NCBI GenBank assembly: GCA_035531615.1
Contig: DATKSQ010000106.1
Span: 5,389-69,388 of the forward strand
DNA from: Candidatus Binataceae bacterium
GTDB taxonomy: Bacteria > Desulfobacterota > Binatia > Binatales > Binataceae
Length of the DNA: 64,000 nucleotides
Direction of reading: 5' to 3'
The notes beneath the pieces were generated by a model, which saw only the letters and a list, made by a program, of their open reading frames with translations, had not been told where the DNA came from and made no database searches. A program made the position numbers and the translations under genes. Of the stretch, positions 37,688-42,805 are shown piece by piece (within the stretch, counting starts at the first letter, position 1; every line of letters begins with the position of its first letter).

Positions 37688-37725
37688 GTCATTCTCGCGC
37701 GTGGCTGTCGCGCAAGGAATCCCGG
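37688..37725. repeat. REP/MITE-like element, family B (single arm)
   Basis: gtcattctcgcgcgtggctgtcgcgcaaggaatcccgg. The same gtcattc..cgcgcg...ggaatcccgg unit occurs at 40181-40222, inverted at 40249-40286, and at 44533-44616. Confidence 0.75.
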
Positions 37726-38363: not shown

Positions 38364-39461
38364 TCAGATACTCAGATGGTACAGCTCGGCGACGTTGTCG
38401 TGCAGGATGTAGTTCTTTTCCTGCTCGCTCAGGTTGGCGGTGTGCTTTTTCAGGATTTCCTGCGACCACGGCCAGGTCGAGTCGCTATGCGGGAAATCGT
38501 TGGCCCACATCAGGCGGCGGATATTGCACATATCCTTCATCTGGAACGCCACCCAGTCGTCCTGGAAGGTCAAGTAGATATTCTCGCGGAAATACTCACT
38601 CGGCATCTTCGACAGCGCTCCCGCCGGCAGCCAGTAGCGATGCCGATCGTAGGCATGATCCATCCGGTACATATAATGCGGCGCCCATCCGGCGTCCGCC
38701 TCGACGCAGATCAGCTTGAGCTTCGGATTGCGCTCGAAGACTCCGCCCAAAATGAAAGTACCCATGATGTCCTGGCATCCGCGGATGATCGACAAAAAGC
38801 TGTTCAGCTTGGGACCGCGAGTTTTGAAGTTATCCTGGCTCGAAGTCAGGATATGGAAGCTCAGCGGCAGCTCGAGGTCGATCGCAGCCTGGTAGAACGG
38901 ATCGTAAATCGGGCTGTCGTAGTCCTCGACCTGTGGATTGCCGGGCATCATCACGCCGCGCAGGCCAAGCTCCTTCATTTTGCGCAGGTCGGCGATGCCT
39001 TCCTGGACCGAGCGCATCGCGGTCTGACCGCATCCGATCAGGCGCCGCGGATGAGTCGCGCAATACTCGGCGATCCACAGGTTGTAGGCGTCGAAGCAGG
39101 CCTTCTTGTAATCGAAATCGCGATGGTTGCAGAGCACCATCCCGACTGTGGGATAGATCACCTCGGCGGCGACGCCGTCGCGCTCCTGATCGGCCATCCG
39201 CGCGTTGGGGTCCCATCCGCCGCGATGCATCTCCTCGAACTTGACGCCGCCGATCCTGAGATCCTCGGGGTTGCGGCCCGCCGCGGCGGCCAGCCCGATA
39301 TTCACCGGGCGCGGAAAGTCCTTGACGATAAACACGTCGCCGAGCTTGTCGTCGCGCACCATATGCGGCGCCGAATCCTTGTATTTCGAATCGATCCGGT
39401 CCACGTAGGTCCCGGCGGGCTCAGTGATATGCGAATCGGCGGAGATGATCGGCTTTTGCAT
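38364..39461 (-). CDS. amidohydrolase-2 family (ACMSD-like metal-dependent hydrolase/decarboxylase)
   Basis: MQKPIISADSHITEP (metal-binding HxH-type N-terminus: SADSH), FHILTSS, VEADAGW and WANDFPHSDSTWP are typical of Amidohydro_2. Confidence 0.85.
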   Translation of the reverse strand: MQKPIISADSHITEPAGTYVDRIDSKYKDSAPHMVRDDKLGDVFIVKDFPRPVNIGLAAAAGRNPEDLRIGGVKFEEMHRGGWDPNARMADQERDGVAAEVIYPTVGMVLCNHRDFDYKKACFDAYNLWIAEYCATHPRRLIGCGQTAMRSVQEGIADLRKMKELGLRGVMMPGNPQVEDYDSPIYDPFYQAAIDLELPLSFHILTSSQDNFKTRGPKLNSFLSIIRGCQDIMGTFILGGVFERNPKLKLICVEADAGWAPHYMYRMDHAYDRHRYWLPAGALSKMPSEYFRENIYLTFQDDWVAFQMKDMCNIRRLMWANDFPHSDSTWPWSQEILKKHTANLSEQEKNYILHDNVAELYHLSI

Positions 39462-39550
39462 GATTGGTTCCTCGACGCGTGTCGACGCGGCATTCTATGG
39501 ACTCAGGCGCGAGCGGACTTCGCGTGCTCTGATCCGCTAATAGCCCAAGC
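39427..39550. repeat. direct duplication, copy 1 (amidohydrolase leader plus first 12 codons)
   Basis: Aligns by eye with 41453-41580, with roughly a dozen substitutions and one ~5-nt indel. It covers atatgcgaatcggcggagat...ggactcaggcgcg.gcggacttcgcgtgct.tgatccgctaata...caagc. Confidence 0.85.
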
Positions 39551-39562
39551 CATGCATCTTTT

Positions 39563-39838
39563 TCAATCCGCTCGGGTATAGGTCGCATCCGCGGCTTCGG
39601 GCGGTGCACCACCCCAGATCAGAACATCAGGGCAGAGGTCGGCGCCGTTGGGCCAGACCACGGTCCCGCCTTCGACCCGTGTTGCTGCGAATACCGCCCG
39701 GTCTCTTTTGATGAGATCGAAGACCGGACCGACGAGAAGATGGGACACATCGCGTTCGATGACAGAGCCATCGGTCAGCGTCAATCTCAGTTTGAAGTCT
39801 TCCAGCACTTTGACTTCACGGACACGCAATAGGGCCAT
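39563..39838 (-). CDS. DUF2442 domain protein
   Basis: 91 aa. VREVKVLEDFKLRLTLTDGSVIERDVS...GGTVVWPNGADLCPDVL is the classic DUF2442 pattern. It is paired with DUF4160 upstream. Confidence 0.75.
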   Translation of the reverse strand: MALLRVREVKVLEDFKLRLTLTDGSVIERDVSHLLVGPVFDLIKRDRAVFAATRVEGGTVVWPNGADLCPDVLIWGGAPPEAADATYTRAD

Positions 39839-39849
39839 ATTCTTTCACC

Positions 39850-40110
39850 TCAATCGAGGGCTTCGATCTCGTTAAGCGCTTCTCCGTTGCGGGCGCGGCG
39901 CCAGTCTTCGCGAAGCTCGGTGCGATGGAGCGCAGCCCATTCAAGCACCAGCGCGAGCGCGCGCCGCGGCAGTGAACCGCGGAATACCGACAGAGTGTCA
40001 ATTTCGATCAAGGCCTCGAACTCGCCATATATCGCATGGAAATGCGCCGGCTCGTGGTCGCTGTAAAACATCCGGATCGCAATTCCGAAGAACCGGCTCA
40101 ATTCTGGCAT
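39850..40110 (-). CDS. DUF4160 domain protein
   Basis: 86 aa. MPELSRFFGIAIRMFYSDHEPAHFHAIYGEFEALIEIDT is the classic DUF4160 N-terminus (H-x-P-x-H-F-H). Confidence 0.8.
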   Translation of the reverse strand: MPELSRFFGIAIRMFYSDHEPAHFHAIYGEFEALIEIDTLSVFRGSLPRRALALVLEWAALHRTELREDWRRARNGEALNEIEALD

Positions 40111-40180
40111 CGCCGAATCACTCGTTTATCGAGTCCTGCACAAGATAGTGACGCCGGCCCGCTCCGGCGCGCCACCTTCT

Positions 40181-40286
40181 GTCATTCCCGCGCGCGTGTC
40201 CGGCGCGCGCGAGGAATCCCGGTTTGCAGCCGCGCGGCGGACCAAAAGACCGGGATTCTTCGCGCGGCAGCCACGCGCGAGAATGA
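40181..40286. repeat. REP/MITE-like element, family B (two inverted arms forming a long hairpin)
   Basis: gtcattcccgcgcgcgtgtccggcgcgcgcgaggaatcccggt ... accgggattcttcgcgcggcagccacgcgcgagaatgat. The arms are reverse complements of the same ~40-nt unit. Confidence 0.8.
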
Positions 40287-40434
40287 TATGCCAAGGAATC
40301 GGGCAAGAGCGGAAGTGTCACTATGATATACAGGGCTCAATAGGCTGGGCCATTCTTCGTCGAAGCTTACGCACGAGCGCGAGATCTTGGCAAGCCTCAG
40401 AACGGAGCGATACTTCACGGTCCCATCCGTCGAG

Positions 40435-41487
40435 TTAGCTGATCCCCGAGGGTATTACGGAGCGGAAAAATGCTACCGCGCCTTCGACCGTCCGCTCATA
40501 CGGATGATTTCGTTTTGGGGCCGTCAAACTCATGTAGGCGGCGTACCGCCAGTCATCGCCCTCTCGGCGGAATAACTTGTAGCGGATGCCGTCGGAGACT
40601 ACAAAGCGGTCGCAGGACGGGAAGGACCGCGCGTAGCCTTTCGCTTGCTCCGGAGCATAGCGCATGCCGTCGAACAAACGCTTGGATTCGATGATCATGA
40701 CGGGCTTGCTGCCCTTCTTGTATGGAGTGTCGAACAGAACAACATCCATGTTGCCCCACTCGATTTTTACCCTCTGCTCTGCCCAGCCAAGAGACATCAG
40801 TAGGGGCACGATCAGAAAGGTCCGGATCTCGTGCTCCCCAACTTCGGCTCCATGGTCGCCATAATACTTTGCCATGCGCCGGAGGCGCCAAATGGTCTTC
40901 GCGATGAGTTCAGCGCGCTGTCCAGGCAGACCGTCAACAATCAGAGACTCTATTACCTCGTCAACCGTAATAGGCTCAGATTTGGCGGGGATCGGTTCCG
41001 AGGCGAGATCTCTACCGCTTGCCCAGATGCGTCTGATTTCGGTGAGTGCCTGTTCGTTGTAAACTCTCTTCAGGGTTCCTCGAGTCAGACCCGAAACTAA
41101 GGTCGTAGCATCAGGGACTTTCCAATGTACTTCTCGGCAATGCTGCAGATCCCATCCCTCCACGTCTTCGAACACTTCTTGATGGACGTAGTCGGACCTC
41201 ACCTCGCCGATAGCAACAATTTCCCACTGGTCGCTGCGCGGGCGCTTGAGGGCGACCAGATCGCCTACGCTGATTTTCTCGGCGAATGGTTCCAGGAACG
41301 AACGGTAGGCTCCGCTCTCGCTCTTATTATAGGCATCTTTGTTCGTAAAGTAGTTTCCCAAGGATCCAGGACCGACGAGAATGACTCCGAACCTCAAGAA
41401 TACATCTGCATAGTCGCGGCTGCCGTCTCCTGCCGCCACCTGCCAGATGTTAATATGCGAATCGGCGGAGATAATCGGCTCTTGCAT
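40435..41487 (-). CDS. PD-(D/E)xK nuclease (type I restriction R-subunit N-terminal, HSDR_N-like) with an uncharacterised N-terminal beta-rich domain; chimeric 5-prime end
   Basis: C-terminal half: EHEIRTFLIVPLLMSLGWAEQRVKIEWGNMDVVLFDTPYKKGSKPVMIIESKRL...EQAKGYARSF...VVSDGIRYKLF, giving D ... E-x-K, then Q..Y, then the (T/S)DG layout of HSDR_N. The first 12 codons (MQEPIISADSHI) duplicate the amidohydrolase start. The gene is AT-richer than the host genes. Confidence 0.7.
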   Translation of the reverse strand: MQEPIISADSHINIWQVAAGDGSRDYADVFLRFGVILVGPGSLGNYFTNKDAYNKSESGAYRSFLEPFAEKISVGDLVALKRPRSDQWEIVAIGEVRSDYVHQEVFEDVEGWDLQHCREVHWKVPDATTLVSGLTRGTLKRVYNEQALTEIRRIWASGRDLASEPIPAKSEPITVDEVIESLIVDGLPGQRAELIAKTIWRLRRMAKYYGDHGAEVGEHEIRTFLIVPLLMSLGWAEQRVKIEWGNMDVVLFDTPYKKGSKPVMIIESKRLFDGMRYAPEQAKGYARSFPSCDRFVVSDGIRYKLFRREGDDWRYAAYMSLTAPKRNHPYERTVEGAVAFFRSVIPSGIS

Positions 41488-41580
41488 GAATGGTTGCTCG
41501 ACTGTCTCAACGCGGCATCATATCATATGGACTCAGGCGCGGGCGGACTTCGCGTGCTTTGATCCGCTAATATCTCAAGC
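41453..41580. repeat. direct duplication, copy 2
   Basis: See copy 1 at 39427-39550. Here it supplies the leader and start codon of the nuclease ORF. Confidence 0.85.
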
Positions 41581-41606
41581 TGCGCTTTTTTGACAGAGAC
41601 CGGCGG

Positions 41607-42086
41607 TCATTGACCCGCCTGCTCGGCGGCAAATTTCTGGAGACTTGCGTAATTGTGGATGCCTCTCTTGCAGTTGCGCTTACCAAGAATCGTCCCGTCA
41701 ACGCGCTGCTGTAAGTATTCCACCAGCTCATTAAATCGCGTCTGCGGGATAAAGTACGTGGGCGCCTTGAATTCACGCTCGATGTTCTTGAAAATAACCG
41801 CGTAGCTGAATCGAGCGGGGTTACGGCCAAACCCCGCGTCAGCCTCGCGGAAACGGTGATAGCGTTCGACCAGATATTTGACGTAGTTGCGCTGCAAGAG
41901 GTCGCTTCCGATCGAACCGAGGGGATATTCGGATGGACGACTGGAGCGTCGGCCGCGAAGAACCTGGTTGATCGTGGTGGAACCGGTGTGCACGTCACCA
42001 TGAATCGTACTGCCCGCAATCGACGTGACATTTGCGCCGTTGGTGATCGTGCTCTTTTCCGCGCGGGTTGAAATGCCGTGTTTCAT
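41607..42086 (-). CDS. hypothetical protein (159 aa), partner of the DUF4062/TIR-like gene
   Basis: The ATG at 42086 overlaps the upstream stop (ATGA). It has a Gly/Ser/Thr-rich N-terminus (ITNGANVTSIAGSTIHGDVHTGSTTIN) and a C-terminal domain YVKYLVERYHRF...FSYAVIFKNIEREF...FNELVEYLQQRVDGT. I recognise no family. Confidence 0.6.
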   Translation of the reverse strand: MKHGISTRAEKSTITNGANVTSIAGSTIHGDVHTGSTTINQVLRGRRSSRPSEYPLGSIGSDLLQRNYVKYLVERYHRFREADAGFGRNPARFSYAVIFKNIEREFKAPTYFIPQTRFNELVEYLQQRVDGTILGKRNCKRGIHNYASLQKFAAEQAGQ

Positions 42087-42616
42087 TGCTTCTTCCTCGC
42101 GAGTGCAACGACTTCGCGCATGACGAATGCCAGATCCTTTCTCACCGTCGCTTCGAATTCCTTCAGACCAGGATACGTCCCATAAAGCGCGTTCTTTCCC
42201 AACTGCTGTCTGAACTGTTCCATCCTGGCGTTTTCACGCGAATCAGGCCGTCGCCTTTCCGGCCCAAGGCGCTGTGAAAAGTATACCATCACCTTCTTGC
42301 CCCGTCTGCGGGCGCGCTCGATTTCCTCCACAGTTCCAGATTCGGCTTTCCCCGTCGGGCTTCCGAGGCGCCGCCAGAAGATCGCGATCACAATGTCCGC
42401 ACGATCGGCAAATTGGCGATTGAGCAACGCTTGAGGCCGTCTGCCAGCGTCCGGGTGCGCATGTGTTCGCCAGTTCATGAGCTCCACGCGCGCTCGCACT
42501 GCGTCGCCATGCTGCACGTTCCAATCATTGATCGCACCGGCTAAGAGGGTGTGCTCCTCCATTATGTCCGAGGGAGCGGCCAGCAGGATTCGGAAAAGCT
42601 GAATTGTCTCGGGCAT
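42083..42616 (-). CDS. DUF4062 / TIR-like / nucleoside-2-deoxyribosyltransferase-like Rossmannoid domain protein
   Basis: The ORF is open to the TTG at 42637, but I use the ATG at 42616 (MPETIQLFRILLAAPSD...). The core is DRADIVIAIFWRRLGSPTGKAESGTVEEIERARRRGKKVMVYF: strand, loop, SGT-x-E-E helix, then GK-x-V strand. The family call is from memory and unverified. Confidence 0.55.
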   Translation of the reverse strand: MPETIQLFRILLAAPSDIMEEHTLLAGAINDWNVQHGDAVRARVELMNWRTHAHPDAGRRPQALLNRQFADRADIVIAIFWRRLGSPTGKAESGTVEEIERARRRGKKVMVYFSQRLGPERRRPDSRENARMEQFRQQLGKNALYGTYPGLKEFEATVRKDLAFVMREVVALARKKQ

Positions 42617-42805
42617 CGGGCAGGAACCTACACGCAACCGCCCTGACGCCGCAATCCGCTCGCGGCATTTCGCGGGTCACGGGGGCGGCTGCGGGCTTGT
42701 CGCGGAATCCCGATTCGTGGAATAAGATGAGGTTATGTCCCGGGCGTCGATGAGCACGGCGCGGCGCCCGATTCTTCACCAGTCCCGGATGGCCACGGAG
42801 GCTTT

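Follow-up and report, generated by a model that had tools for sequence, protein, structure and literature searches.

What does a nuclease gene do when it encodes the cleavage domain of a type I restriction enzyme and no other component of such a system lies beside it? This question is raised by an open reading frame (ORF) in a 64,000-nucleotide stretch of DNA from a Candidatus Binataceae bacterium (GenBank assembly GCA_035531615.1, contig DATKSQ010000106.1, positions 5,389 to 69,388 of the forward strand), which is referred to here as the window. The ORF is found at 40435..41487 on the minus strand of the window, it is uninterrupted and encodes 350 amino acids (aa) followed by a stop codon. 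The gene is present in one copy in the genome, a 3.67-Mb metagenome-assembled genome (MAG) of 153 contigs that is 86.6% complete. In a preliminary description, made from the sequence alone, the product was taken to be a candidate type IV or solitary restriction enzyme with an unassigned, reader-like N-terminal domain. Our analysis points to an autonomous modification-dependent (type IV-like) DNA restriction nuclease, which would be solitary and nucleotide-independent; this reading draws on analogy with characterised enzymes and we give it a probability of about 0.6.

By its precomputed annotation the protein can now be assigned to a family, Pfam DUF8426 (PF28530). The precomputed annotation PF28530.1 is found for the ORF protein (P0001) and for most of its 120 best homologues. 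Homology to DUF8426 members is full-length, covering both domains over ~335-345 aa at 44-78% identity. A collection of 5.8 billion proteins contains 456 homologues, which are mostly 335-343 aa long and give 95-97% query coverage. A library clustered at 50% identity gives matches to 673 representative clusters with E < 1e-3, of which 141 have E < 1e-30, and in nearly all of them both halves are covered. The nearest homologue is 78% identical, and every invariant family residue is kept in the ORF protein. A full-text literature search for 'DUF8426' returned no paper mentioning the family, the ORF protein has no match in NCBIfam, and PDB sequences gave no match at E-values up to 10, either to the single protein or to a profile of 29 sequences.

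All motif strings quoted in the preliminary description are present in the ORF, both those of the C-terminal half (GEHEIRTFLIVPLLMSLGW, NMDVVLFD, MIIESK, EQAKGY and VSDGIRYKLF) and those of the N-terminal half (IWQVAAGDGSRDYADVFLRFGVILVGPG, VGDLVALKRP, WEIVAIGEVRSDY and WDLQHCREVHW). The protein very probably has a two-domain architecture in which a reader is followed by a helical linker and an HSDR_N-type nuclease. The parts of the gene are as follows.

40993..41451, minus strand: reader domain, residues ~13-165, with a predicted PUA-like EVE/YTH fold (AlphaFold2 (AF2), Foldseek and hhalign).
40783..40992, minus strand: helical linker and bundle, residues 166-235 (secondary structure of the AF2 models).
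40438..40782, minus strand: PD-(D/E)xK nuclease core, residues 236-350 (Pfam, Foldseek and conservation).
40744-40746, minus strand: codon of D248.
40687-40689, minus strand: codon of E267.
40681-40683, minus strand: codon of K269.
40645-40647, minus strand: codon of Q281.
40633-40635, minus strand: codon of Y285.

The C-terminal half had been called an HSDR_N-type PD-(D/E)xK nuclease, and this call is upheld by Pfam matches, by restriction-nuclease folds in Foldseek and by conservation of the catalytic residues. The ORF protein matches HSDR_N below threshold (16.1 bits against a cut-off of 25.1, E = 0.011) and HSDR_N_2 at E = 0.051; a relative, P0159, passes the HSDR_N gathering score with 31.2 bits against 25.1. 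HSDR_N is matched by 73 of 150 family representatives and HSDR_N_2 by 70 of the 150, with a best E-value of 2e-8. The AF2 model of residues 168-350 has a predicted local distance difference test score (pLDDT) of 91.4. In a Foldseek search of the PDB with the C-terminal model the top 24 matches are all restriction or PD-(D/E)xK nuclease domains. The best of these are 9y1l (a putative restriction endonuclease), BpuSI, DrdV, the Vibrio vulnificus HsdR structure 3h1t, EcoR124I HsdR and BsaXI; HsdR 3h1t is matched with a probability of 1.00 and DrdV with a target template modelling (TM) score of 0.57.

Alignment of the PD-(D/E)xK residues had been named in the preliminary description as a check on this domain, and the residues are conserved in both sets of sequences that we aligned. 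Residues E218, E220, R222, D248, E267, K269, Q281 and Y285 do not vary among 29 homologues that are 44-78% identical, and E218, E220, D248, E267, K269, Q281 and Y285 are at least 90% conserved among the 150 representatives, whose identity is 26-63%. Conserved E218, E220 and R222 are found in the helix GEHEIRTFLIVPLL of the linker and bundle. A constellation of a helix glutamate, an aspartate, ExK and QxxxY is that of HsdR and RecB-type nucleases. Judged from its residues, the nuclease active site, E...D...ExK...QxxxY, is intact.

The N-terminal half had been likened to small beta-barrel readers of modified DNA, an assignment that was offered as only an impression. At the level of fold it is supported by Foldseek matches to YTH, EVE and PH1033 structures. 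The full-length AF2 model has a pLDDT of 91.7 and a predicted TM score (pTM) of 0.86, and only residues 1-9 are disordered (pLDDT below 50). When this model is searched against the PDB, PUA-like readers (YTH, EVE or PH1033) make up 49 of the 50 best matches, and the match at rank 40 is a restriction nuclease. The reader matches extend over ~160-185 columns with probabilities of 0.9-1.0 and target TM-scores of 0.39-0.61, they include the YTH domains of MRB1, YTHDF1/2/3, YTHDC1, Pho92 and Mmi1 and the EVE structures 2eve, 1zce, 2g2x and 2ar1. In the viral structure library BFVD the matches include EVE and ASCH proteins, a phage HSDR_N protein and, over 223 columns, a 336-aa phage protein. The conserved aromatic and polar residues of the domain are W15, Q16, Y26, F30, K81, W88, Y100, F106, W112, H116, W122 and R136-G137-T138. 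On the evidence of the predicted structure, the N-domain is EVE/YTH-like by fold and lies outside Pfam EVE.

Fusions of PUA-superfamily readers to nucleases are modification-dependent and are rarely found beside methylases (PMC6765204). In VcaM4I the EVE domain flips 5-methylcytosine (5mC) or 5-hydroxymethylcytosine (5hmC) into a pocket made up of P24, W82 and Y130, and autoinhibition of the nuclease comes from this reader together with the linker helix (PMC7897488). The mechanism that we propose for the DUF8426 protein is modelled on VcaM4I, an EVE-HNH enzyme, and on enzymes of the MspJI type. When phage or plasmid DNA enters the cell, the reader would flip one of its modified bases into an aromatic pocket; binding of the base would relieve an autoinhibition by reader and linker, or would position a dimer. 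The PD-(D/E)xK site (D248, E267, K269) would then cut nearby DNA with a divalent metal. Host DNA would be spared where it is without the cognate modification or sequence context.

The DUF8426 family is rare and widely scattered. A scan of one genome per species over 185,579 species found 93 DUF8426 loci (~0.05%), which occur in many bacterial phyla and in archaea. Identity across phyla reaches 65%, the value for the window protein and a Syntrophomonas copy; with a Bathyarchaeia copy it is 59%. In a maximum-likelihood tree it falls in a 14-member clade (support 100/97) that mixes Pseudomonadota, Bacillota, Bacteroidota, Verrucomicrobiota, Latescibacterota and Bathyarchaeia; its sister is a copy from a Methylovirgula MAG with 70% identity.

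The gene was described as solitary, with no helicase, methylase or specificity gene nearby, and both statements stand. Its neighbours in the window are amidohydrolases, a DUF4160/DUF2442 pair and a DUF4062-like pair. For the close clade, which we define as the 24 loci with at least 40% identity, the Pfam families of the two nearest ORFs on each side were tallied (94 flanking ORFs). There is no recurrent neighbour, no Pfam family being present in more than two of the 24 loci, and RNA-metabolism genes are likewise not recurrent among the 94 ORFs. At individual loci the gene is surrounded by housekeeping genes, with toxin-antitoxin or defence genes here and there. All-against-all clustering of the ORFs within 4 kb at 86 loci gave conserved partners only in distant relatives, so that a partner gene common to the close clade was rejected on this ground as well.

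These distant relatives, of 30-37% identity, are found in two types of operon. At ten loci (L056, L059, L062, L063, L072, L073, L074, L080, L081 and L082, for example L059:2965-9753) the relative occupies the middle position, with genes for a ~1000-aa DUF1156 protein and a ~920-aa DUF499 protein on either side. PADLOC names the DUF1156 protein as the HmaB adenine methylase (E = 1e-115) and the DUF499 protein as the HmaC ATPase (E = 1e-93). The relatives embedded in these Hma operons are ~315-320 aa long and form a single clade with 100/100 support, they may be the nuclease component of Hma-type systems. At L059 a gene for an OLD/GajA-like ATPase-TOPRIM protein is found just upstream. In the second type, of about nine loci, the relative lies inside an hsdM-hsdS-X-hsdR operon; these loci are scattered on the tree, with at least two origins. 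One member of the close clade, L011, adjoins a ~1025-aa ORF that clusters with the HsdR-type neighbours.

The operons bear on whether the window protein could act alone. It might be an accessory or effector subunit that needs a partner, either the methylase and ATPase of an Hma system or a type I restriction-modification (R-M) system, and as an orphan in this genome it would then have little or no activity of its own; its reader might even sense the mark of the partner methylase, for example keeping the nuclease off self DNA. The middle position in HmaB-X-HmaC at ten loci of one clade suggests such a role, as do the other relatives embedded in type I R-M operons and the ORF adjoining L011. Against it, the type I association has at least two origins on the tree, as is expected of co-location in defence islands, and the contig has no match to the four methylase families that we searched. 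Moreover, the 24 loci of the close clade have no recurrent neighbour and yet the catalytic and reader residues are strongly conserved, which indicates an autonomous function. We therefore consider the subunit explanation quite unlikely for the window protein. The label of a type IV or solitary restriction enzyme given in the preliminary description would fit the solitary clade, its patchy spread and the R-M and Hma contexts of the relatives.

Another possibility is that the nuclease is directed at RNA, for example in abortive infection, with a reader for N6-methyladenine (m6A) or a tRNA modification and a nuclease domain that cuts RNA. The best fold matches of the reader are eukaryotic YTH domains that bind m6A RNA, RNA-related roles have been predicted for EVE-like domains in certain prokaryotic contexts, and RNA is the predicted target of some type IV-like systems (PMC7641849, PMC11090510). 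By sequence and fold, however, the nuclease domain groups with the DNA-cleaving domains of type I, IIG and IIL enzymes and includes QxxxY, the relatives are found in DNA restriction-modification systems, and genes of RNA metabolism do not recur beside the close clade. An RNA target is thus improbable.

If the DUF8426 protein is a modification-dependent DNA nuclease, which mark does it read? Four families of DNA methylase (PF00145, PF01555, PF02384 and PF02086) were searched in the genome, and none is matched on the contig of the window. The host genome contains five good N6/N4-type methylase genes, and C5-methylase is present as fragments only. In the same genome partial N6_Mtase matches are found in two open frames of ~1145 aa (C127:2916-3299 and C93:74415-74795), which may be type IIG or BREX PglX-like enzymes. 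Of 50 carrier genomes 25 encode C5-methylases, among them one with seven matches to the family; the corresponding counts are 10 of 20 for close-clade genomes and 9 of 14 for controls. The specificity cannot be read from avoidance of methylases, an approach that we rejected because the rate of C5-methylases in carriers is similar to that in controls.

The best fold matches of the reader are the YTH domains, which bind m6A. A trigger of m6A or 5mC independent of context is nevertheless unlikely, because some relatives are built into adenine-methylase systems, the host has five N6/N4 methylases, and half of the carriers have C5-methylases. A hypermodified base of the phage type or a mark restricted to a sequence context is more plausible. 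Candidate triggers may be glucosylated or other 5-substituted pyrimidines, 7-deazaguanines or N4-methylcytosine. Since adenine and C5-cytosine methylases are both common in carrier genomes, and since some relatives belong to adenine-methylase systems, we also considered that the trigger is an unusual one. The mark might be new for the PUA-like pockets of the characterised type IV families, or these proteins might be the first autonomous YTH-like nucleases that depend on m6A in DNA in a restricted context; this is tentative, and we would expect it to prove wrong more often than right.

How did the gene come to be in this genome? It was described as AT-rich and as part of an island with a captured promoter. 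The gene has 55.1% GC, and 64% GC at third codon positions (GC3), compared with 63.9% GC for the window and a GC3 of 82-85% for resident genes. An island is present as described, and synteny with three same-genus genomes (G003, G005 and G009) refines its borders. The insert and the features connected with it are as follows.

40127..~42691, unstranded: insert of 2.56 kb with 57% GC, which same-genus genomes lack (blastn synteny and border sequences).
41453..41591, minus strand: copy B, a duplicate of the leader between DUF2442 and the amidohydrolase gene plus 12 codons (repeat families D1, D2, D13 and D14).
41452..41487, minus strand: twelve captured codons, MQEPIISADSHI, from the amidohydrolase start MQKPIISADSHI.
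39427..39591, minus strand: copy A, the resident amidohydrolase leader together with the first 12 codons of that gene (38364..39461), source of copy B.
40180..40290, unstranded: palindromes like repetitive extragenic palindromic (REP) elements, downstream of the nuclease gene (the arms of I1 are 37 nt long and 92% complementary; I9, D15 and D17 are of the same family).
41607-42637, minus strand: DUF4062-like pair, two overlapping genes with an ATGA junction, within the insert.

The insert contains the REP-like palindromes, the DUF8426 gene, copy B and the DUF4062-like pair, which encodes proteins of 159 aa and 184 aa. In the same-genus genome G009 the order of genes is a radical-SAM operon, the amidohydrolase, DUF2442, DUF4160, ~117 bp of unrelated sequence and a D-aminoacylase. 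The order in G005 and G003 resembles that in G009, but only the DUF2442 part aligns. The DUF8426 gene is absent from all 60 related genomes, ten of them of the same genus. From these sequence comparisons the gene is judged to have been acquired horizontally on the 2.56-kb insert, because the family is patchy across phyla, the clade mixes phyla, the gene is absent from the 60 relatives, synteny defines an insert, and GC and GC3 are low. REP-like elements at 37689-37725, 40250-40286 and 40206-40266 belong to one family, which fills a gene-poor stretch at 36.9-38.4 kb; host REP-family elements inside the insert imply that it is old enough to have been colonised by host repeats.

The DUF4160/DUF2442 pair (39563-40110, minus strand) is resident, it is 84% identical in G009. 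Copies A and B are 86.8% identical over 129 columns. The region orthologous to copy A is present in G003, G005 and G009, and copy B shares lineage-specific bases with copy A that are not found in these orthologues, so the duplication was intragenomic. The ~135-nt repeat was also considered as a target-site duplication around a 2-kb insert, and this was rejected because DUF2442 and DUF4160, which lie between the copies, are resident in same-genus genomes. In the 184-aa protein of the DUF4062-like pair the N-terminus matches the PADLOC candidate PDC-S60 (E = 6.6e-27), with weak matches to DUF4062 and nucleoside deoxyribosyltransferase; the 159-aa protein has no family match.

Some of these neighbours are seen at other DUF8426 loci. 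A JGI metagenome contig encodes a 71% identical protein, P0007, whose annotated length of 431 aa includes a DUF7683 extension at the N-terminus. Its gene has an Amidohydro_2 fragment of 103 aa on one side and a full Amidohydro_2 gene on the other, and is thus a second DUF8426 gene beside amidohydrolases with an altered 5' end. An unrelated DUF8426 locus, L002 (7099-7624), has a DUF4160/DUF2442 pair immediately upstream. The recurrence of DUF4160/DUF2442 beside DUF8426 may be a coincidence, or such pairs may mark integration hot spots.

At the 5' end of the nuclease gene the junction with copy B falls after GCATAT, exactly at the family start, where M-x-I-W-Q becomes ...H-I-N-I-W-Q (ATT AAC ATC TGG). 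All homologue alignments begin at query residue 12 or 13. The family's own start has been replaced, so translation must begin at the captured ATG, and copy B supplies both the ribosome-binding site and the ATG of the nuclease gene. Of the captured promoter that had been described, the duplicated leader sequence of ~130-140 nt is real; a consensus scan found no minus-strand (sigma-70-like) promoter upstream of the ORF. A hairpin-forming segment (GCGGATCA.AGCACGCGAAGTCCGC) is present in the duplicated leader at 39462-39591 and 41488-41591, and in same-genus genomes it is conserved upstream of the amidohydrolase orthologues. The segment could terminate transcription of the upstream gene, or it could act as a regulatory RNA element.

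The rearranged start could mean that the gene is a decaying or silent passenger in this genome, in which the loss of start and promoter and the 12 foreign codons are scars of rearrangement rather than an adaptive capture. The native ATG is lost, the copied ribosome-binding site is weakened from GAGGAA to GAGCAA, the promoter scan was negative, and REP elements have colonised the insert. The 350-codon frame is nevertheless intact and retains all invariant family residues at 78% identity to the nearest homologue, and the captured codons join it precisely in frame where the protein would naturally begin. Disorder is predicted for the extra residues, which should leave the fold undisturbed. We regard a silent passenger as having little probability.

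A housekeeping role, as a nuclease of DNA repair or maintenance that recognises damaged bases, would also be conceivable for a reader joined to such a nuclease. Stand-alone EVE proteins of the Thy28 type are widespread and not linked to defence, canonical EVE is present in 91 of 151 related genomes, and PD-(D/E)xK nucleases include repair enzymes. A gene found in ~0.05% of species and in none of 60 relatives, on a horizontally transferred insert of low GC and with relatives in R-M and Hma operons, does not look like a housekeeping gene, and this explanation is very improbable.

Several results weigh against an autonomous modification-dependent nuclease. The Foldseek E-values for the reader fold are modest (5e-4 to 4e-2). 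The ORF protein has no match to Pfam EVE, YTH or PUA, and in 150 family members one touches EVE (E = 0.012) and two touch PUA (E = 0.013). When 131 N-domains and 30 canonical EVE domains from related genomes are compared as profiles in hhalign, the alignment is in register, with beta1 IWQVAAGD placed over YWLVKSEP and GDLVVLK...WEIVAVGEV over GDxVLFYHS...VVGIAxV, but is weak (P = 0.0019, probability 14.6%). The aromatic base pocket is conjectural, with candidate residues among W15, W88, Y100, F106, W112, H116 and W122. The natural start is replaced by a fusion, and the Shine-Dalgarno sequence of copy B is weaker than that of copy A, so that expression of the gene is hypothetical. The Hma-embedded position could mean that the ancestral role was as a subunit of a larger system. 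Finally, weak repeated matches of the family to the PADLOC candidate PDC-S02, the best by P0264 at E = 1.9e-8 over both domains and that of the ORF protein at E = 1.6e-5 in the reader domain, favour a link to defence, but one PDC-S02 representative was not protective against T4, T5 and T7 in Escherichia coli B (bioRxiv 10.1101/2024.09.26.614923). PDC-S02 consists of single-gene models of ~308-346 aa, similar in length to the DUF8426 protein, but the homology is distant and the DUF8426 protein would not be called PDC-S02.

If our prediction is true, DUF8426 adds an experimentally untouched family to the modification-dependent restriction enzymes. Its members would be compact (~340 aa) and without a nucleotide cofactor, and such enzymes help to explain the conflict between phage and host and can be used as reagents to map modified bases. 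What makes the reader interesting is that sequence profiles miss it and that the genomic evidence points away from the usual 5mC or m6A targets. The locus would be a clean, datable case of an acquired defence gene joined to host expression signals through duplication of a local leader and 12 codons. In the HmaB-X-HmaC clade there is a candidate for the nuclease component of the Hma systems, which are poorly understood.

Of the known systems, the VcaM4I/TspA15I group (PMC6765204, PMC7897488) resembles DUF8426 in having an N-terminal PUA-superfamily reader, a linker helix and a C-terminal nuclease on a single polypeptide without an NTPase, usually not beside a methylase. A similar mechanism, base flipping into a hydrophobic pocket and autoinhibition by reader and linker, would be expected for DUF8426 by analogy. 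The nuclease of the VcaM4I/TspA15I group is HNH, whereas that of DUF8426 is of the HSDR_N-type PD-(D/E)xK. In addition, the DUF8426 reader escapes the Pfam EVE model and lacks the canonical W-x-G-V-R-N segment, and DUF8426 carriers do not avoid C5-methylases.

Fusions of YTH-like and DCD domains to PD(D/E)XK were noted computationally by Bell, Wolf and Koonin in 2020; in their analysis the YTH-like domains of prokaryotes, joined to McrB GTPases or PD(D/E)XK nucleases, gave only 'modest hits' to EVE and YTH (PMC7641849). Our placement of the N-domain as EVE/YTH-like at the level of fold agrees with this. The association of EVE with type I R-M and with COG1743(DUF1156)-DUF499 operons was described in the same work (PMC7641849), and both contexts are shared by DUF8426 relatives. 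Direct fusions of PUA and PD-(D/E)XK were considered rare by Lutz et al., with YenY4I as the single example (PMC6765204), and a 2024 paper lists YTH-nuclease fusions as future work (PMC11037411). The McrB protein of Thermococcus gammatolerans has a YTH-like N-terminal domain and so carries, like DUF8426, an EVE/YTH-like reader on restriction machinery. It works through a GTPase motor and McrC, whereas the DUF8426 reader is fused directly to the nuclease.

MspJI-family enzymes consist of an SRA-like reader and a C-terminal PD-(D/E)xK nuclease, they are type IV/IIM enzymes dependent on 5mC or 5hmC. The order and logic are the same as in DUF8426, with an N-terminal PUA-like base-flipping reader and a C-terminal PD-(D/E)xK domain in a solitary, NTP-independent enzyme. 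The readers differ, being SRA-like in MspJI and EVE/YTH-like in DUF8426, and the nuclease subfamilies differ as well; MspJI is not among the top 50 Foldseek matches of the full-length or C-terminal models. The N-terminal nuclease of HsdR (EcoR124I, 3h1t) and the type IIG/IIL enzymes BpuSI, DrdV and BsaXI have a catalytic fold and motifs in common with DUF8426, but DUF8426 is without a superfamily 2 (SF2) motor, a methylase or a specificity domain, and its nuclease is coupled to a base reader. The kind of protein is therefore already known, a type IV fusion of a PUA-superfamily reader to a nuclease, and DUF8426 is an uncharacterised family of it with a reader that has diverged in sequence.

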